From Minisyncoccota bacterium (GTDB lineage: Bacteria; Patescibacteriota; Minisyncoccia; 2-02-FULL-40-12; GWA2-44-9): 64,000 nt of DNA. The first letter of the stretch is position 1. Each line of letters opens with the position of its first letter. The DNA lies in contig JAGOSO010000001.1 in assembly GCA_018062285.1 (NCBI GenBank), forward strand, positions 100,137-164,136, given 5' to 3'. The notes beneath the pieces were generated by a model, which was not told the origin of the DNA, searched no databases, and was given only the letters and a program-made list of their open reading frames with translations. A program made the translations under genes and the position numbers. Below, in pieces: positions 11,443-58,193 of the stretch.

Positions 11443-11518
11443 TGGTGGACCCTGCCGGGTTCGAACCGGCGACCTCCTCATTGCAAATGAGGCGCTCTAC
11501 CAACTGAGCTAAGGGCCC
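11443..11518 (-). tRNA. tRNA-Ala(UGC)
   Basis: GGGCCCTTAGCTCAGTTGGTAGAGCGCCTCATTTGCAATGAGG...CCA; G3:U70 Ala identity pair; anticodon loop TTTGCAA; CCA encoded. Confidence 0.9.
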
Positions 11519-11531
11519 TAACTTCCTTCTG

Positions 11532-11603
11532 TGGGTGCGGAAGGAATCGAACCTTCGACCTCGTTCTTATCAGGAACGCGTTCTACCACTGAACTACGCA
11601 CCC
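11532..11603 (-). tRNA. tRNA-Ile(GAU)
   Basis: GGGTGCGTAGTTCAGTGGTAGAACGCGTTCCTGATAAGAACG...; anticodon GAT; cloverleaf closes; no encoded CCA. Confidence 0.9.
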
Positions 11604-11761: not shown

Positions 11762-12328
11762 ATGAAGACGACCGCCACTACAACCCCGCAGGAATTAGAC
11801 AGGGTCAACAAGGCCCTGAAAAAGAAATTCCTAAACAAGAAACTGATACTCGGTAGTGGTTCCGTCCCTGCAAAACTGGTTTTTGTGACCGAAATACCTG
11901 GTGCAGACGAAGTTAGGGAATCACGCCCTCTCACCGGACTCTCTGAAAAAATGCTTCATCAGGTCCTAAAAACCGTGGGCATTGATAAGAAAAAGATATA
12001 TATAACAAGCGTTGTTAAGTATTCAGCTACCCCAGGAAAGGCCATCTCTCCTAAGGAAATAAAGTCTCATATCCCCTTCTTAAAGGAAGAGATCAAGGCC
12101 ATAAATCCTTCTGTCGTCGTCACTCTTGGCATGACCGCCTTAAACGGAATCGGCTTACGCCAGCCATTAGACAACGTACACGGACGAACCTTTAATTTCG
12201 GCAGTTACGAGCTAATTCCAACCTTCCACCCAAGTCATGCCGTTAATGACCCGCAGATCAAGGCCCACCTCACTAACGACTTGTCTAAACTCAAAGAACT
12301 CCTCAAAAAACCAGCAGAAAATCAATAA
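11762..12328 (+). CDS. Uracil-DNA glycosylase, family 4 (UDG superfamily)
   Basis: TEIPGADEVRESRPLTG (GExPGxxEDxxGxPFxG-like) and C-terminal TFHPS motif. Confidence 0.8.
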   Translation: MKTTATTTPQELDRVNKALKKKFLNKKLILGSGSVPAKLVFVTEIPGADEVRESRPLTGLSEKMLHQVLKTVGIDKKKIYITSVVKYSATPGKAISPKEIKSHIPFLKEEIKAINPSVVVTLGMTALNGIGLRQPLDNVHGRTFNFGSYELIPTFHPSHAVNDPQIKAHLTNDLSKLKELLKKPAENQ

Positions 12329-12361
12329 ATAAAACAGGCTCATCTATCGAGCCTGTTTTAT

Positions 12362-13342
12362 TTATTTCTTACGAGCAATTACTTTCTTAACCGCAACCTG
12401 GATGTGACTTATCCCTAAGCCACAGGCTTCAACTAATTCTTCTGCCGTGCCGGATTCGCCAAATCTATCTTGTAAACCAATGAATTCTTGAGGTGTTGGG
12501 TGTTCTTTGGCCAATGTTTCAGCGACAACTGATCCCAGACCACCGGCAATTTGATGTTCTTCAATACTTACCACTGCTCCAGTTATTTTAACTGAATCAA
12601 CAAGAGTTTTATTATCAAATGGCTTAATTGTGTGTGAATTTATAACCGCGCACTCAATTCCCTCTTTGGATAATTCTTCAGCAGCCAATAATGCATTGTG
12701 TAACAAAATCCCACAGCCAATAATGGTGCAGTCTTTACCTTCTCGCATCACAATTGCCTGCCCGATTTCAAATGGAGTGGCCGATGTTGTAATCACCGGA
12801 GACTTTTCGCGCCCTAAACGCACGTAGGAGGGCTGTTGGTTAAAAGCAATGGCAATAGTGGCTTTGTGGGCTTCCACCGCGTCACAGGGCACCACAACAA
12901 CCATACGGGGCAACACACGCATGAGGGCTACGTCCTCCAGAGCCTGATGAGTTGCGCCATCGGGGCCGACGGAAACACCGGCATGGGCGCCAATTATTTT
13001 AACTGGAACATTATTAATCGCGATATTGGTGCGAATTTGCTCGTTATTTCTTCCAGGATTAAAAGCCGCATATGAAGCAATAAACGGGATCTTTCCATAA
13101 TTCGCCATACCTGATGCAACTAAAGCTAGATTTTGTTCTGCCACGCCAACCTGAATAAATCTATCTGGAAACTTATTTTTAAATCCATCCGAACGAGTTG
13201 ATTCAGTTAAATCAGCACAAAGAACAACAACTCTTGTATCATTCCCCACCACTTCCGCCATGGCTTTCCCATATCCATCCCGAGTCGGCACCATTTCCGG
13301 CTTAGACAAATCGTTGATTAATTTTGCTTCAGGATTAAGCAT
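12362..13342 (-). CDS. Transketolase, C-terminal (pyrimidine-binding) subunit
   Basis: 326 aa; GYGKAMAEV...FIQVGVAEQNLALVASGMA...HAGVSVGPDGATHQALED. Confidence 0.9.
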   Translation of the reverse strand: MLNPEAKLINDLSKPEMVPTRDGYGKAMAEVVGNDTRVVVLCADLTESTRSDGFKNKFPDRFIQVGVAEQNLALVASGMANYGKIPFIASYAAFNPGRNNEQIRTNIAINNVPVKIIGAHAGVSVGPDGATHQALEDVALMRVLPRMVVVVPCDAVEAHKATIAIAFNQQPSYVRLGREKSPVITTSATPFEIGQAIVMREGKDCTIIGCGILLHNALLAAEELSKEGIECAVINSHTIKPFDNKTLVDSVKITGAVVSIEEHQIAGGLGSVVAETLAKEHPTPQEFIGLQDRFGESGTAEELVEACGLGISHIQVAVKKVIARKK

Positions 13343-13388: not shown

Positions 13389-13637
13389 CTACATAGTCTT
13401 CTGGACCGGACAGGTTCCGCAGTGTTTTTCACCACAGCAACATTTACACCACTTTGAATTCTTAGATAACAAAATCAAAATTACAGTTGACCAAGCCCAA
13501 TAACCAGCATCAAAGCCAAAAAATACCTTACTCCCCAAACTGGACCAAAAGAACAATATACCAGAAACCCAAGCCAACAATGACAAAACTATCATCACTG
13601 TATGATGTGGGCACTTACATCTTTCATTACTCATCAT
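13389..13637 (-). CDS. Small Cys-rich membrane protein (82 aa)
   Basis: Two TM helices flanked by CKCPHH (N-terminal) and CKCCCGEKHCGTC (C-terminal) cysteine clusters; sits between the two transketolase subunit genes. Confidence 0.4.
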   Translation of the reverse strand: MMSNERCKCPHHTVMIVLSLLAWVSGILFFWSSLGSKVFFGFDAGYWAWSTVILILLSKNSKWCKCCCGEKHCGTCPVQKTM

Positions 13638-13667: not shown

Positions 13668-14531
13668 CTATTGATGTTCAGATTTAATTTTACCACCTAA
13701 CGTTCGTAATTCATTTAAAAATTGTTTGGCTTCTTCGGGTTTTGGCGGTTTACCATGCCATGCAGGGTCAAATTCCATTTCCCTAATCCCCTTGCCGGGA
13801 ATGGTGTGTGCAATAATAACGGTTGGTTTTTCGTGGATTGCCTTGGCTTCCTGCACCGCATCAACAAAAGCCTCAATATTGTGCCCATCAATTTCCAAAA
13901 CATGCCAATTAAAGGCTTCATATTTAGCTTTTAAGTTTTCCAATGGCATCACATCTTCAGTGAAACCATCAATCTGGATATTGTTTCGATCAATTACAGC
14001 AATCAGATTTGATAATTTATATTTGCCAGCAAACATTACAGATTCCCAGGTAGAACCTTCTTCTTGTTCACCATCGGACATAAAGCAATATGTTTGGAAC
14101 TTTTTACCATCCATGCGAGAAGCATAAGCAATGCCACAGGCTTGGCCCAAGCCAGAGCCCAGTGGCCCTGATGTTGTTTCAACCCCTGGAAGTCTTTCTC
14201 TTTCAGGGTGACCCTGCAAACGTGTTCCAAATTTACGCAAAGTCTTTAATTCTTCAATTGGAAAATAGCCCGACATCGCCATAAGAACATAGCGAATAGG
14301 CACAATGTGGCCATTAGAAAGTATCAGCCGATCACGATCATCCATCTCTGGATTCTTGGGGTCATGATTCAAAATATGAAAATACATCGCCGTAAAAATA
14401 TCGGCCATCCCCAATGGTCCAGCTGTATGCCCACTCCCAGCCTCAGTCAATGACTCAATCAAAAGTTCCCTGGCTTCGTTAGCCTTTGTTTCTAGTTCCT
14501 CAATTTTTCCTTCAGGAATATATTGAGACAT
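13668..14531 (-). CDS. Transketolase, N-terminal (TPP-binding) subunit
   Basis: 287 aa; GHTAGPLGMADIF...SNGH...GSGLGQACGIAYA. Confidence 0.9.
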   Translation of the reverse strand: MSQYIPEGKIEELETKANEARELLIESLTEAGSGHTAGPLGMADIFTAMYFHILNHDPKNPEMDDRDRLILSNGHIVPIRYVLMAMSGYFPIEELKTLRKFGTRLQGHPERERLPGVETTSGPLGSGLGQACGIAYASRMDGKKFQTYCFMSDGEQEEGSTWESVMFAGKYKLSNLIAVIDRNNIQIDGFTEDVMPLENLKAKYEAFNWHVLEIDGHNIEAFVDAVQEAKAIHEKPTVIIAHTIPGKGIREMEFDPAWHGKPPKPEEAKQFLNELRTLGGKIKSEHQ

Positions 14532-14533
14532 AT

Positions 14534-14917
14534 CTATGGGTTAGTAAAAAATTTAAAAATACTAAAGTGTGAGTCAGGGTACATAGAATTCATCATATTC
14601 ATATAGTTTGTCCAGCTAAACAAAACCCAAACAAGGACCATTAACCCTGTGTAAAAAAGAATTTCTAGTGAATAACTTCTTTTTTTAAACAACTTAGATG
14701 TAATATACCCCAAAAACAGAATGATTAATGTGTTTCCTAGAATCACTGCATCCCCAACCACTTCAACTATGCCCCCGAAGCCCTTTTCTCCGGGTAACAC
14801 CCAACGACTCAAAAGCCACCCAAGTATTAAGACCCACTCTACCAAAGCAAACCACCTTAGCTTACTGTGATGAGGGGCTAATTGTTGTTCAGAAATATAC
14901 TGGGGCATTCTAAGCAA
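14534..14917 (-). CDS. Hypothetical membrane protein
   Basis: 127 aa, three or four TM helices. Confidence 0.5.
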   Translation of the reverse strand: MLRMPQYISEQQLAPHHSKLRWFALVEWVLILGWLLSRWVLPGEKGFGGIVEVVGDAVILGNTLIILFLGYITSKLFKKRSYSLEILFYTGLMVLVWVLFSWTNYMNMMNSMYPDSHFSIFKFFTNP

Positions 14918-14919
14918 TT

Positions 14920-15717
14920 TTAGAGGTTACCATCGATCTCCCTGGCAACAGCTTCCACCATGTCGTGGGTAGTTAAAATATTTCCATCCTCATCCCTCTC
15001 CACGCCTAAGGTTATCGAGTACTTTTTGTCAGTCGATAGCACCGTAAGGCGATCGTCGTACCACGCAGCGGTAGCGCCCAGACCAGAAACTATTGTGGGA
15101 GCTGGTGGATATGTGGTGTTAATACCCCCTCCACCAACTTTCTCGCCGGCATATTCTGTTTGCCATTTTATTTCGGAATTAAAGGCCTCTTCTGCACTGT
15201 AATTACTCCAAGTTATAATATAGAGAAGTTGCCCAACCATTGCTCCGACAGACGATCTTTTATTTTTTGGATCCACATAAGAACAGATGACTTGTTTAAC
15301 TCCCGCCTCGACCACTTGATCACCCGCACCTTCATGACCAGGCAAAGCATTTAAACCAGCCACGGCCAAACCTTCTCCTTGCTGAATGAGCTCATAGTCA
15401 GCAGGATTCTTACCGGTAATTTGCTGGAATTTATTGTCAGGTAAAAGGTCTCTGCACTTTAATGAACCAGTGCTTTTTGAGGTTGGCAAACCCAAACTAC
15501 TCAGGCCAGAAGAAGGCTTATCAAAAAACATAAAATAAGCACCTACCCCAAGAACCATAACGATAACCCCACCAATAATCATACCAAGAGGTTTAATGCC
15601 CATCCCCCTGTCGCCTTGTAGCGGGTTAATTTGTGGCATGGCAGGCTCCGGCATTAATGGTTGCACTGGTGCTTGCTCCTGAGGCATTATTGGCTGGTTT
15701 TGTATTGGTTCGTCCAT
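14920..15717 (-). CDS. Membrane-anchored protein with Pro-rich N-terminus (paralog 1)
   Basis: MDEPIQNQPIMPQEQAPVQPLMPEPAMP then one TM and a roughly 200-aa C-terminal domain; N-terminus and 5' flank duplicated at 15759-16253. Confidence 0.7.
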   Translation of the reverse strand: MDEPIQNQPIMPQEQAPVQPLMPEPAMPQINPLQGDRGMGIKPLGMIIGGVIVMVLGVGAYFMFFDKPSSGLSSLGLPTSKSTGSLKCRDLLPDNKFQQITGKNPADYELIQQGEGLAVAGLNALPGHEGAGDQVVEAGVKQVICSYVDPKNKRSSVGAMVGQLLYIITWSNYSAEEAFNSEIKWQTEYAGEKVGGGGINTTYPPAPTIVSGLGATAAWYDDRLTVLSTDKKYSITLGVERDEDGNILTTHDMVEAVAREIDGNL

Positions 15718-15752
15718 GGTTATTGGGTTATTTTTTAAAAATATATTGGGAT
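15635..15752. repeat. Direct repeat copy 1 (promoter plus 5' coding cassette)
   Basis: About 120 bp near-identical to 16168-16291, including the shared AATATATTGGGA upstream motif and the first roughly 28 codons. Confidence 0.8.
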
Positions 15753-15758
15753 ATAAAA

Positions 15759-16253
15759 TTAAAGAAAAATAAAAATAACTAAAATTGGATTTAAATCTTC
15801 AAGGGTAAACCTGGGTAATCCTGTCCCTGAAACACCAAAAACACCATATGTATACGAGCAAACACCAATCCACATTAAAATCTCAAAAAATACCCTCGTG
15901 AATAAAAGGCTCTGGTTACTCATATTTCTCGCTTTCATAATCACCCGTATAAGAATTAAGATAACCGCTGACCAAAAGAAAAAGGCTACTCCGGTAGCGA
16001 CTATTGCTCTATTTGTAATTTGTAATGCCAAACAACCAAACCCCTCACTAAGGGCACAGGGCTCTGGCAAAGTAATACTCATTCTGTAAATTAAAAATCC
16101 AGCCGCACTAATAAATCCTATTACCCGTAAGTACAGAAATAAATGCTTACTCATTCCCCCGCTTGCAGGCATAGCAGGTTCAGGCATTACTGGTTGTTGC
16201 ACTGGTGCTGGCTCCTGAGGCATTATTGGCTGGTTTTGTATTGGTTCGTCCAT
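15759..16253 (-). CDS. Polytopic membrane protein with the same Pro-rich N-terminus (paralog 2)
   Basis: MDEPIQNQPIMPQEPAPVQQPVMPEPAMP then four TM helices; unrelated C-terminus. Confidence 0.65.
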   Translation of the reverse strand: MDEPIQNQPIMPQEPAPVQQPVMPEPAMPASGGMSKHLFLYLRVIGFISAAGFLIYRMSITLPEPCALSEGFGCLALQITNRAIVATGVAFFFWSAVILILIRVIMKARNMSNQSLLFTRVFFEILMWIGVCSYTYGVFGVSGTGLPRFTLEDLNPILVIFIFL

Positions 16254-16291
16254 AATTATTGGGTTATTTTTCCTTCAGAAATATATTGGGA
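16168..16291. repeat. Direct repeat copy 2 (promoter plus 5' coding cassette)
   Basis: See copy 1. Confidence 0.8.
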
Positions 16292-16297
16292 GGGGCA

Positions 16298-16486
16298 TTA
16301 GTAAAGGATGCCATTCAAAACCCATTGCACCAAAGCAAAAGCAATCAAAGTATAAACAAACTTTTCTAACGTAAATTGCTTCCAATATGATTTCTTATAG
16401 AAATTCCATATATCTCTACCAACGTAAACATAAAGTATCGGGGAAAGTATCAGCAGGGCGTACACAAACAATAAGATATAGTCCAT
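16298..16486 (-). CDS. Small membrane protein (62 aa)
   Basis: Two hydrophobic helices; compact spacing; weak support. Confidence 0.3.
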   Translation of the reverse strand: MDYILLFVYALLILSPILYVYVGRDIWNFYKKSYWKQFTLEKFVYTLIAFALVQWVLNGILY

Positions 16487-16494
16487 TGCGGTTT

Positions 16495-17511
16495 TTAAAT
16501 AATGCTGGCTACTTTTAATACATGGGCAACCAAACTATTGGTATACCCAAATTCATTGTCGTACCAGGAATAAACACAGCATAAATCGCCATCAACAACT
16601 TTGGTTAAAGTTAAATCGGCTACGGCTGCGTGAGATTCGCCAATAATATCAGTGGAAACCAACTGGTCAGTTGTCGTTTTAAAGATCCCCTGCCAACGTG
16701 GATCAGATTCAGCTTCTTTGAGAGTGGAGTTAATTTCTTCGACTGTGGTTGGCCGAGAAGAAACAAAAGTAATTGCCGAGATTGAGCCATCTTGAACTGG
16801 AACACGCATGGCCAAGCCATCAAACTTGTCTTTTAATTCTGGGATAGCACGAGCCACAGCGATAGCCGAACCTGTCGTTGATGGCGAAATATTCATAGCT
16901 GCAGAACGACCACGACGATAGTCAGTGCCTTTAGCCGGCCCATCGATCAATGACTGAGTGGCTGTGTAAGCGTGAACAGTATTCAAAAAAGCTTTCTTGA
17001 TTCCAATTTTTTCAATCAGAATTTGCATCAATGGCGAAGCGGAGTTAGTGGTACAAGAACCATTAGACGACACGGAACAGGTTTTTAAATCTTCTTCATT
17101 GATTCCCATTAAGACTGTTTTGCCGTCTGCGTTGTCTTCGTCTTTGGCAGGTGCGGTTAAAACAACATGCTTAGCACCAGCAGCTTTGTGGGCTTCCGCT
17201 TTCTCAAAACTCTCAAAAGCGCCAGATGATTCAACAACAATATCAATACCCATGGTTCCCCAAGGTAGTTTCGTTGGATCTTTTTCTTGGATAAACAGGA
17301 ATTCTTTGCCATCAATGGTTAATTTGCTATCTTTAACCTCTACCTCTTTCTCGTAATTCCCATAAACGGAATCATGCCTCAAGAGATAAGCCAAATCATT
17401 GATATCTCCCAAGTCGTTAATTGCTACAACTTCAATTTCTGGCTTAGTAATAGCCAGCTTAAAGAAGTCTCTCCCAATCCTCCCAAATCCGTTAATTGCT
17501 ACTTTTGCCAT
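16495..17511 (-). CDS. gap: Glyceraldehyde-3-phosphate dehydrogenase
   Basis: MAKVAINGFGRIGR NAD-binding N-terminus, SCTTNS active site, 338 aa. Confidence 0.95.
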   Translation of the reverse strand: MAKVAINGFGRIGRDFFKLAITKPEIEVVAINDLGDINDLAYLLRHDSVYGNYEKEVEVKDSKLTIDGKEFLFIQEKDPTKLPWGTMGIDIVVESSGAFESFEKAEAHKAAGAKHVVLTAPAKDEDNADGKTVLMGINEEDLKTCSVSSNGSCTTNSASPLMQILIEKIGIKKAFLNTVHAYTATQSLIDGPAKGTDYRRGRSAAMNISPSTTGSAIAVARAIPELKDKFDGLAMRVPVQDGSISAITFVSSRPTTVEEINSTLKEAESDPRWQGIFKTTTDQLVSTDIIGESHAAVADLTLTKVVDGDLCCVYSWYDNEFGYTNSLVAHVLKVASII

Positions 17512-17581
17512 AATGGTTATATGTTATCAAACTAGCCTTAAACGACAAACAAAGTTATCAGACTTACTTATTTAATGAATT

Positions 17582-18000
17582 TTATTTATCGTTAAACATC
17601 TTTTTTAAAGGTTCCCAATAATAATCGATCCAGCCCTTTTTAATTTCGACATACTGTTCGATGGGAACACCTTTCTGGGTAAATTTTAAAGTTGTCTTTC
17701 CGGCCTTCTCAGAGAGGCCATAAGTGACGGTTGAATAGTGCCCTTCTGGCCAGTCACTCGCCCTCCAGGATTGAACTATTTTTTATCCTCTTTTAGTTCC
17801 AAATTTTTACCATCAATATAGCCGTCGTAGGCACTAATTTTACCTCCCACTTTTTGACCCATCGAAGCTTTGGCACCCGTAAAATGGGAGTGTTTCTTTG
17901 AACTCATCAAAGCGTCATATACTTCATGGGTGCTAGTTTTTAATACTACAGATCGGGTTATGTTTTTTGTTTTCATTGTTTTGTTGTTTTGTATATACAT
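17582..18000 (-). pseudogene. AHSA1/SRPBCC-domain gene interrupted by a frameshift at an A6 tract
   Basis: The 74-aa ORF (17776-18000) ends ...LELKEDKK-TAG; one extra A in the AAAAAA run (17779-17784) gives continuous ...KEDKKIVQSWRASDWPEGHYSTVTYGLSEKAGKTTLKFTQKGVPIEQYVEIKKGWIDYYWEPLKKMFNDK*, a typical AHSA1-family C-terminus. Confidence 0.7.
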
Positions 18001-56747: not shown

Positions 56748-58193
56748 TTACTTACCCCTGATAGTGAAGGCATCGATGGCTGCAAACATGGCTTCACGAG
56801 AACCAGCGATTATTAAATAAGTCTTTCCGTTGTGTTGAACTAGCGAGTAATCAATAGAGCGATCTGGGTAAGGGAAGTTCTTGAAACGGATCGACGCCCC
56901 ATTATAGTTTGTTGGGGCAAAAGCACCAGTATTCTTGCCCGGCAAGACATTCATAATACTAGAAAGGTTAACACTCATCGATGGTTCCCATGTTTGCATA
57001 ATGGAGGCAGATGAGCTGGCAACTTCGCTAACAATAACGAATCTGGTGCCAGGTTTGGCATTAACAATTGGTTTCCCCTTACTATCAAAAGATTCTTTCT
57101 GACCATAGAGCAAGAACTTATAATTATTACCCAAGGATGACTGCAATGAGGCTGGGTATGCTGCCAAGAAACGATTCATTAAGCCGGAAAATGTTAGCGG
57201 TAGTGATGACGAAGATGTTCCATTGGAAATACCAACTGTAGTAAATGTTCCTGCTGAAATGCTGGTTTGAGCAGAAATAGCATTAGCGAAAGCAACGCCT
57301 GGATCGCCAGAATCAGGGAGAACGATAACCCCACCCTTATTTGGAAATACGGTTGATAACACATCGAGATTGGGAGTGATAGTTGGGCGAGGAGTGAAGG
57401 TTACAGCAGGAGAACTAGTGGCCACAGGAGTTGAATTTGTGCCCTTGATCATGAAGAACCAGTAGAGGACACCTAACAAAACCATACCTACACCGATAGC
57501 AACAAACACGAGGTTTCTGCTGCCAGAAGAAACAACGTTTTTGGTAGTGGTCGTGGCTACAGGGGGGACATAGAACTGATTCTTACTATCAATTTTTGAT
57601 GTATTGTTCTTGGTTGGTTCGGGCATTGATGGCATAACAGGACGAGGAATTGGGGTTGGTGCAGGAGAAGAAGTAGGGGGAACCACTGGCTTAGGGGCAG
57701 AAGGCAACGAGCCACTTCTGGTGGCTTCGGGCATTGTTGCTGTGGCTAGCGGCTTTGGTGCTGAAGAAGCAGGCGCAACTGGGGCAACAGGCTTAGCTGG
57801 GGCAGGGGAATTATCTATTTTCCTTGGCACATTAACACCTTGAGGCATCTGGCCCGATTTCAGCTTAGCCAAATCATCGCTCATTGTTCTAATTGAGGAT
57901 TGATACTCTTTCGGAGCTAAAGGTTGAGTCGGGGCAGGGGATGGAGTGGAAGCAGTATTTGGTTTTGGAGCAGAAGAAGCTGACACAGGGCCAGAAGATG
58001 GCATAACAGGACGAGGAATTGGGGTTGGCGCAGGAGAAGAAGTAGGGGGAACCACTGGCTGGGCCATTGGTTTAGGAGTGGGTGCTGGGTTTACTGAAGG
58101 AGTTGCTGGAGTTCCTTGTGGACGACTTAATTCTCTGACTAAATCATCGATGTTTGATTGAGATGCAGTTGAGTTTGGGCTATTATCTGCCAT
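56748..58193 (-). CDS. Pro-rich repeat membrane protein (481 aa)
   Basis: About 200-aa Pro/Ala/Ser-rich N-terminal region containing two copies of PVVPPTSSPAPTPIPRPVMPS, one TM, about 250-aa C-terminal (likely extracytoplasmic) domain. Confidence 0.65.
   Translation of the reverse strand: MADNSPNSTASQSNIDDLVRELSRPQGTPATPSVNPAPTPKPMAQPVVPPTSSPAPTPIPRPVMPSSGPVSASSAPKPNTASTPSPAPTQPLAPKEYQSSIRTMSDDLAKLKSGQMPQGVNVPRKIDNSPAPAKPVAPVAPASSAPKPLATATMPEATRSGSLPSAPKPVVPPTSSPAPTPIPRPVMPSMPEPTKNNTSKIDSKNQFYVPPVATTTTKNVVSSGSRNLVFVAIGVGMVLLGVLYWFFMIKGTNSTPVATSSPAVTFTPRPTITPNLDVLSTVFPNKGGVIVLPDSGDPGVAFANAISAQTSISAGTFTTVGISNGTSSSSLPLTFSGLMNRFLAAYPASLQSSLGNNYKFLLYGQKESFDSKGKPIVNAKPGTRFVIVSEVASSSASIMQTWEPSMSVNLSSIMNVLPGKNTGAFAPTNYNGASIRFKNFPYPDRSIDYSLVQHNGKTYLIIAGSREAMFAAIDAFTIRGK
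57628..57690. repeat. Intragenic direct repeat copy 1 (63 bp)
   Basis: Near-identical to 57997-58059 (one mismatch); encodes the PVVPPTSSPAPTPIPRPVMPS repeat. Confidence 0.8.
57997..58059. repeat. Intragenic direct repeat copy 2 (63 bp)
   Basis: See copy 1. Confidence 0.8.

Follow-up and report, generated by a model that had tools for sequence, protein, structure and literature searches.

Mycoplasma surface-protein loci such as vsp, vlp and vsa consist of many paralogs with repetitive bodies, and are served by a site-specific recombinase or a phase-variable promoter; in the minimal mobile elements of Neisseria the ends of the flanking genes are not known to be duplicated, and homology-facilitated illegitimate recombination (HFIR) as described does not duplicate its anchor. 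Insertion with long target duplication was reportedly described by Nobusato et al. in 2000. It is known for restriction-modification modules, which have long target repeats of variable length, lack mobility genes and are found mostly in naturally competent species (PMC2853133: Furuta, Abe and Kobayashi 2010, NAR). In HFIR, as far as outlined in PMC3240628, foreign DNA that is being taken up integrates through homology on one side and is joined illegitimately on the other, and Patescibacteria encode homologous-recombination genes and comEC/pilus DNA-uptake systems (PMC12455944). Here we analysed a 64,000-nt window (the whole stretch under study of contig JAGOSO010000001.1, which is 169,720 bp long) from a metagenome-assembled genome of Candidatus Paceibacterota, belonging to the Candidate Phyla Radiation (CPR), in which two adjacent open reading frames (ORFs) between GAPDH and tktN, the gene for the N-terminal subunit of a split transketolase, share a direct repeat of ~120 bp. 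This repeat is probably the scar of a small insertion with target-site duplication, situated within a hot spot between the GAPDH and transketolase (tkt) genes. To our knowledge such a GAPDH-tkt hot spot has not previously been described in the CPR. Transketolase is not mentioned in the paper on gene transfer in Patescibacteria cited above (PMC12455944).

The genes of the locus are all on the minus strand, in the order GAPDH, 62-aa, 164-aa, 265-aa and 124/127-aa ORFs, tktN, 82-aa ORF and tktC, with a gap between GAPDH and tktN of 1,964 nt and the interval ORFs bearing the locus tags KBC81_00670 to 00685 (Table 1). An initial annotation had noticed that the adjacent 164-aa and 265-aa genes begin with near-identical DNA of about 120 bp and continue into different bodies, and its coordinates and the 28 shared codons were correct. 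Within a core of 76 nt (15660-15735 vs 16196-16271) the identity is 96% (blastn within the window, E 3.5e-32), and over the full gapped repeat (15635-15751 vs 16168-16291) 109 of the 117 aligned bases are identical, plus 7 gap columns, the copies differing by 8 substitutions and 3 indels. Each copy contains the element TCCCAATATATT, a leader (AAATAACCCAATAAyy) and 28 codons (MDEPIQNQPIMPQE[Q/P]APVQ..PVMPEPAMP), and at the boundary of the repeat identity falls sharply from 93% to nothing. There is no third copy in the window (blastn), and public data hold only these two. The N-terminus was not found beyond the 164-aa ORF and true members of the 265-aa family in a phmmer search of 1.84 billion representative proteins, nor was its degenerate DNA pattern matched in the JGI metagenomes. 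Contigs from two other samples agree with the window (100% and 99.3% identity) over the stretches covered, and both stop inside a repeat copy. The independent contig L083 extends from GAPDH across the 164-aa ORF and reaches the second copy, and the Logan contig with tktN (L170) begins 73 nt upstream of tkt, and is uninformative on strain variation.

The upstream part of the repeat, AATATATTGGGA, had initially been taken for a duplicated promoter. It is coding sequence and no promoter, because it is a copy of codons 1-10 of tktN, which starts ATG TCT CAA TAT ATT CCT GAA GGA AAA ATT (MSQYIPEGKI); MSQYI[SH][ED].K is the conserved tktN N-terminus in the fetched Parcubacteria loci. The element TCCCAATATATT occurs four times rather than twice (14517-14527, 14894-14904, 15740-15750 and 16280-16290), always on the minus strand, between GAPDH and tktN and at a gene boundary, with the tktN start itself being one of the four. 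The expectation is 1.9 matches for the whole window, and the clustering of four within 1.8 kb has a P of ~3e-6. The promoter reading was rejected, as the element is tkt coding sequence and not a general motif in the window, and promoter-like sites were detected only 5' of GAPDH. We refer to the tktN start as J1 and to the three partial copies, or stubs, as J2 to J4. J4 carries the GAAGGAAAAAT (EGKI) codons of the window's own lineage, J3 has lost the ATG and has 4 nt deleted, and J2, from which the 124-aa ORF receives its first in-frame ATG, matches the tkt of the relative L001 (22/24) better than it does the resident one (17/21). The 62-aa ORF, at its 3' end, shows a weak similarity of 23 nt to the 5' region of the 124-aa ORF, which was judged uninformative.

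We expanded the comparison to 170 sequences (169 fetched loci, referred to by L numbers, and the window), which were searched with 32-residue end peptides as queries. GAPDH followed by tktN is conserved in 107/170 loci, and the gap between them ranges from none, with the genes abutting through overlapping stop and start codons (GTAATG) in several loci, up to 4.5 kb elsewhere. Extra tkt 5' stubs were found in L001, L008, L035, L051, L075, L085, L100, L104/L105, L125, L143, L157, L166 and L168, and by inspection of DNA and ORFs also in the window, L009 and L084, giving a total of at least 16 loci; extra GAPDH 3' stubs are present in at least five (L056, L067, L085, L100 and L143), with about 20 of the 170 loci having one or the other. 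All stubs are co-oriented and all are located within the GAPDH-tkt interval, except for the L008 stub, which is 3.9 kb upstream of tkt, beyond GAPDH. The control segments (middle and 3' end of tkt, middle and 5' end of GAPDH) had no genuine extra copy in the 170 loci, and the duplications are restricted to the gene ends that face the island. The tkt stubs are 21-86 nt long without a common right boundary, and the GAPDH stubs 63-87 nt, and several hold stop codons, deletions or frameshifts, in the manner of pseudogene fragments. In some cases the stub and the resident gene do not differ at all (32/32 in L001, 35/35 in L125), and others are nearer to the tkt of other lineages (L104, L051, L075 and J2 of the window). 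In L001, L051, L075, L084 and the 124-aa ORF of the window, tkt-derived N-termini are fused to ORFs of the insert. The closest relative found, L001 (GCA_034680565.1), has GAPDH and tktN sequences ~92% identical to those of the window, an interval with entirely different genes, and an insert flanked by an exact repeat, 32 nt long, of the L001 tkt start.

A comparison of filled and empty sites was possible for L143, where GAPDH is followed by an 86-nt tkt stub, the genes for an MNT-HepT pair (~650 nt), an 80-nt GAPDH stub and the real tkt. The 160-nt flanks of this insert (173-332 and 988-1147) are 84% identical to each other, and both align to one 166-bp segment of L103 (835-1000) across the GAPDH/tkt junction; they likewise align to a single segment in L096 and L097, and in all three of these empty-site loci GAPDH and tkt abut. 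L085 has the same toxin-antitoxin pair and stub types as L143, and L100 a different MNT/HEPN pair with stubs. In three different metagenomic genomes (L143:253-1068, L085:1461-2250, L100:53-930), MNT/HepT-type (nucleotidyltransferase/HEPN) pairs have a tkt 5' stub on one side and a GAPDH 3' stub on the other, which suggests that the toxin-antitoxin pair and the stubs travel as a unit. No genes of mobile elements were found in the inserts of L143, L100, L104 and L125, which contain only toxin-antitoxin or DUF5674 pairs, and the inserts of the window are single small ORFs without any Pfam match, so that no transposase or integrase was identified there. The DUF5674 protein, followed by a ~110-aa protein, is cargo of the interval in four loci (L104:2029-2729, L125:4299-5004, L084:266-942, L010:5267-5910), with or without a tkt stub, and this pair may be another two-gene selfish module.

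The 265-aa protein has a single hydrophobic helix (residues 47-65) followed by a 200-aa C-terminal domain, as the initial annotation had described it, with residues 85-265 predicted by AlphaFold2 at a pLDDT (predicted local distance difference test) above 85. The domain has no match in Pfam or PDB. Looking up the exact protein sequences of the 265-aa and 164-aa ORFs yielded no contig. A word-index search of 5.8 billion proteins matched the 265-aa protein and the 164-aa ORF only to themselves or to strain variants, and an exhaustive phmmer scan gave 20 family hits for the 265-aa protein, whose alignment with P0013-P0030 covers its whole length (E as low as 5e-32). Members of this family have a variable cytoplasmic N-terminal tail, either Pro/Gln-rich ('MDEPQNNQPVVPQEP...') or helical ('MNQDLENYIKQ...'), one transmembrane (TM) segment and an ectodomain of ~190 aa with two conserved cysteines, which contains the motifs F.C.DLLPD.DF..ITG, L.VLSSNKKY and, at the C-terminus, A..ID.NL; in the family alignment C88 and G214 are invariant and C145 nearly so. 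The Pro-rich N-terminus is native to this family, because together with its upstream leader it is conserved in members from other genomes, namely those of L008, L084 and both L085 paralogs, and also P0023, P0024 and P0026. Several of the homologs also occupy the GAPDH-tkt interval beside tkt stubs. In L008, direct repeats of ~300 nt (~800-1110 and ~2320-2640, 82-97% identity) flank a gene of the 265-aa family together with a 62-nt tkt stub; the ~300-nt element has an internal palindrome and a GC-rich stem-loop at its end, and Rfam gave nothing convincing for these repeats.

With regard to the 164-aa ORF, the match to the 265-aa family is confined to residues 1-28, and the 416-bp segment between the repeat copies encodes it from residue 29 on. 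Its body has no homolog among the 5.8 billion proteins except for one 99% strain variant. A profile hidden Markov model (HMM) of the family, built without the window sequence, scores -3.5 bits on the remainder of the ORF, a score reached or exceeded by 123 of 500 shuffles, and tblastn detected no resemblance to the ectodomain in any frame; on these grounds the body was rejected as a homolog of the family. The predicted product is a multi-TM protein, with the number of four given initially being approximate only, because two segments are strongly hydrophobic and one or two more are weaker. The insert has 36% GC, vs 43-45% in the flanks, and M34, 15 nt beyond the repeat, is a possible start of its own. 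Most simply, the 164-aa ORF is a chimera in which the upstream copy of the duplicated target reads into the 416-bp orphan insert, and the N-terminal 'tag' may be a mere in-frame by-product of the duplication. The 481-aa protein at 56748-58193, which the initial annotation had placed alongside these two proteins, does have the same general layout, with 227 aa of Pro-rich N-terminus ahead of one TM and a C-terminus of 235 aa. It resembles the cassette in low-complexity sequence only (E 0.006), and the two are not homologous. An exact internal repeat of ~21 residues (PVVPPTSSPAPTPIPRPVMPS) is present near its residues 46 and 173.

From these observations we propose that GAPDH and tktN were neighbours ancestrally, the stop codon of one overlapping the start codon of the other (TAATG), and that in the Paceibacteria/Parcubacteria their junction would have become a hot spot where small DNA is inserted with a long target duplication of 20-166 bp. 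Each insertion would restore an intact 5' end of the downstream gene, with the upstream copy of the target (the stub) either decaying or reading into the insert. The window could then be explained by three nested events, the order of which we infer: a gene of the 265-aa family and the 124-aa TM ORF would each have been inserted at the tkt start, giving rise to the stubs J4/J3 and J2, and the 416-bp orphan segment would later have been inserted ~28 codons into the 265-aa gene, with duplication of ~120 bp comprising most of the earlier stub, the leader and the 28 codons. In the right copy the 265-aa gene would stay intact, and in the left copy the ATG and Pro-rich N-terminus would have come in frame with the insert to create the 164-aa chimeric ORF. 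By analogy with L143, with which it shares its anatomy, the repeat of the window would thus mark an insertion that had the 5' end of the 265-aa gene as target. The route is most likely DNA from relatives, taken in by RecA-type recombination on short homology, possibly through a circular intermediate and a single crossover, or with one illegitimate end. A more far-reaching version, which we consider doubtful, is that the GAPDH/tkt junction acts as a cassette-capture platform that is functionally similar to an integron, either without a recombinase or with an unknown one: small cassettes would circulate between CPR cells as circles in which the junction is present inside out (cargo between the tkt 5' end and the GAPDH 3' end), would enter by a single crossover and be expressed from the glycolytic promoter, and the stubs would keep the TAATG coupling and lend start codons.

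Several points count against an insertion into the 265-aa gene. The mechanism of integration is inferred rather than observed, and no relative with the empty site (62-aa ORF, repeat and 265-aa gene without the 164-aa body) was found. The 8 substitutions and 3 indels between the copies leave room for gene conversion of older paralogs, and the sequence 'PASGGMSK' just past the repeat in the 164-aa ORF resembles 'PATGGISGK' of the family, without being significant. The low GC content of the insert could merely reflect TM-rich coding, and the recombinase screen covered only part of the window (3.1-32.8 kb).

The alternative in which both genes descend from an old tandem pair of 265-aa-family paralogs, with the ectodomain lost or replaced in the upstream gene and gene conversion keeping the 5' ~120 bp alike, is unlikely, although L085 does have two family paralogs with similar leaders and N-termini in a single GAPDH-tkt interval, and in the 164-aa ORF the repeat is followed by 'ASGGMSK' and a TM helix as in family members. 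The lack of an HMM signal past residue 28 and of an ectodomain-like sequence in any frame are difficult to reconcile with such an origin, as are the sharp boundary of the repeat and its inclusion of the non-coding stub and leader. An assembly artefact, with two strain alleles that share a 5' end stitched into a false tandem, is the least credible explanation: two Logan contigs do stop inside the repeat, but L083 reads through the 164-aa body into a J3-type copy, which is distinguished from J4 by indels, and the 164-aa body is therefore truly followed by a second copy; the longest exact stretch common to both copies is also shorter than a typical read.

An integron-like platform, with an unidentified recombinase that would direct circular cassettes to one fixed core within the start of tkt, behind the promoter of the GAPDH operon, would account for co-oriented single-ORF cassettes separated by copies of one sequence, for the toxin-antitoxin cassettes (as in chromosomal integrons), and for the use of the same site in many genomes. 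We consider it improbable: the stubs do not end at a constant point and duplication affects the 3' end of GAPDH too, on which grounds a fixed-att integrase model was rejected; the repeats track each lineage's own gene sequence, no integrase adjoins the locus among the ORFs scanned, there is no attC-like inverted repeat, and the same pattern recurs elsewhere, once with the 5' end of the 265-aa gene as target and once with the ~300-nt element in L008. The initial annotation had favoured a polymorphic surface-protein system, in which a promoter and N-terminal cassette are recombined onto alternative bodies. One N-terminus on two unrelated membrane-protein bodies would fit this, as would the Pro-rich or helical N-terminal modules of family members. 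Programmed variation is not supported, because there are only two copies and no recombinase domain (in the ORFs beside the locus that were scanned with Pfam, where the neighbours at 3.1-32.8 kb are housekeeping genes), inverted repeats or silent cassettes were found near the repeat; the genes are co-oriented without an invertase, the upstream element is a tkt fragment, and the contigs of the two other samples match the window where they cover it. This explanation is close to refuted and the idea of a programmed variable envelope system is left without support. Only two copies, in a locus that two other samples match where covered, point to a local duplication, though inside a real recombination hot spot, and what stands is that the shared 5' segment came about by duplication and recombination, which placed one N-terminus on two unrelated bodies.

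Table 1. Features of the GAPDH-tkt locus, with positions counted in the window
Feature	Position	Strand	Evidence
Presumed operon promoter, sigma-70-like matches 5' of GAPDH	17579..17712	-	Consensus match only
Type I GAPDH, conserved upstream flank of the variable interval	16495..17511	-	Pfam Gp_dh_N, Gp_dh_C
62-aa orphan ORF, two-TM; stop overlaps the ATG of stub J4 (TAATG)	16298..16486	-	ORF and hydrophobicity
J4, stub of tktN 5' end (ATGCCCC[TC]CCAATATATTTCTGAAGGAAAAATAA)	16263..16296	-	23 nt, 96% to tktN start, E 2.6e-5
Left copy of ~120-bp repeat: most of J4, leader and 28 Pro-rich codons	16168..16291	-	Sequence comparison
164-aa ORF (KBC81_00680), proposed chimera of duplicated N-terminus and orphan multi-TM body	15759..16253	-	Database, HMM and tblastn searches
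416-bp segment between repeat copies, proposed insert	15752..16167	-	No homolog; no family-HMM signal; GC 36%
Right copy of repeat: decayed stub J3, leader and true 5' end of 265-aa gene	15635..15751	-	Sequence comparison
265-aa protein (KBC81_00675), small Patescibacteria family	14920..15717	-	phmmer hits, alignments, AlphaFold2
J2, tkt 5' stub (ATGCCCCAGTATATTTCTGAACAA = MPQYISEQ)	14885..14908	-	Sequence comparison
124-aa orphan ORF (KBC81_00670), three-TM, in-frame fusion to J2	14534..14908	-	ORF and hydrophobicity
J1, first 29 nt of tktN, source sequence of stubs	14503-14531	-	
tktN, split transketolase N-terminal subunit	13668..14531	-	Pfam Transketolase_N, E 1.6e-64
82-aa Cys-rich small membrane protein between tktN and tktC	13389..13637	-	tblastn matches in ~30 loci
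tktC, transketolase C-terminal subunit	12362..13342	-	Pfam
Terminator hairpin, 19-bp stem, end of presumed operon	12324..12366	-	Terminator and Rfam scans

The remaining features of the locus are collected in Table 1. Since consensus promoter-like sites are present only 5' of GAPDH and a strong terminator follows tktC, the eight genes from GAPDH to tktC probably form one operon, and the genes of the interval would be co-transcribed from the GAPDH promoter, as judged from consensus scans. None of the four interval ORFs had a match in Pfam, nor did the 481-aa protein or the 265-aa family, and the 124-aa ORF has an alternative longer form of 127 aa starting at 14917. The 82-aa protein, with the C-terminal sequence KWCKCCCGEKHCGTC, is encoded between both transketolase subunit genes in ~30 Parcubacteria loci, where it is conserved, perhaps as a fixed partner of the operon for the split transketolase. 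In the window it is the only ORF between tktN and tktC, whereas L001 has three large paralogs there (612, 856 and 551 aa, L001:6552-12630) with Pro/Thr-rich linkers and a common C-terminal domain of ~300 nt (74-78% DNA identity), making this a second variable interval of the same operon. The terminator hairpin is located between the convergent tktC and UDG genes, scores as a minus-strand terminator and is probably bidirectional; Rfam showed only weak sub-threshold matches to microRNA families on both strands at this hairpin, and nothing besides it across the locus. Between the bestrophin-like and UDG genes, tRNA-Ile(GAT) and tRNA-Ala(TGC) are side by side (11443-11603), a pair which usually sits in rRNA spacers.

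The locus provides a view of how accessory genes are gained and shuffled in streamlined CPR genomes without classical mobile elements, with toxin-antitoxin pairs, small membrane proteins and orphan ORFs as the cargo. Repeated insertion at one tightly coupled junction of core genes would leave datable scars, and chimeric ORFs that borrow start codons and N-termini. The junction is also a concrete site at which circular intermediates, and the gene flow by transformation that has been proposed for the CPR, can be sought in metagenomic reads.

Compared with the known systems, the vsp, vlp and vsa loci of Mycoplasma resemble the locus in that neighbouring surface-protein genes have a highly conserved 5' region on divergent bodies, but here there are two genes, no recombinase was found among the flanking ORFs, and the shared upstream part is a transketolase fragment; systems of the vsp/vlp/pilS type would be expected to have at least three expressed or silent cassette copies, against two in the window. 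Integron arrays share the co-oriented, mostly promoterless single-gene cassettes behind one promoter, the recurring separator and the toxin-antitoxin cassettes, whereas the flanking ORFs and boundaries checked here contain no IntI, attI or structured attC, and the repeats derive from adjacent genes as fragments whose ends vary. The minimal mobile elements of Neisseria likewise consist of variable genes between two conserved genes, without mobility genes and with presumed exchange by transformation and homologous recombination in the flanks, but differ in that here stubs of both flanking genes separate the cassettes. HFIR, as far as it is outlined in PMC3240628, could explain the stubs that are nearer to the tkt of other lineages than to the resident gene, but alone does not explain the two-sided 166-bp junction duplication of L143.

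The insertion with long target duplication has most in common with the locus: a small module without transposase or integrase, direct target repeats of variable length, a single copy at the empty site and addictive cargo, with L143 and L103 providing a pair in which a repeat of more than 30 bp corresponds to a single copy at the empty site. The length of the repeat varies by event, from 21-86 nt for tkt and 63-87 nt for GAPDH to 117-124 nt for the 5' end of the 265-aa gene and ~300 nt in L008. There are also differences: the cargo here consists of toxin-antitoxin pairs and small membrane or ectodomain proteins instead of restriction-modification systems, insertion is recurrent at one core-metabolic junction in many CPR lineages and results in nested arrays, and the upstream copy of the target donates start codons and N-termini to the ORFs of the insert. 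The GAPDH-tkt interval would thus extend a little-studied insertion mode, known from restriction-modification systems, to the Patescibacteria and to toxin-antitoxin cargo.

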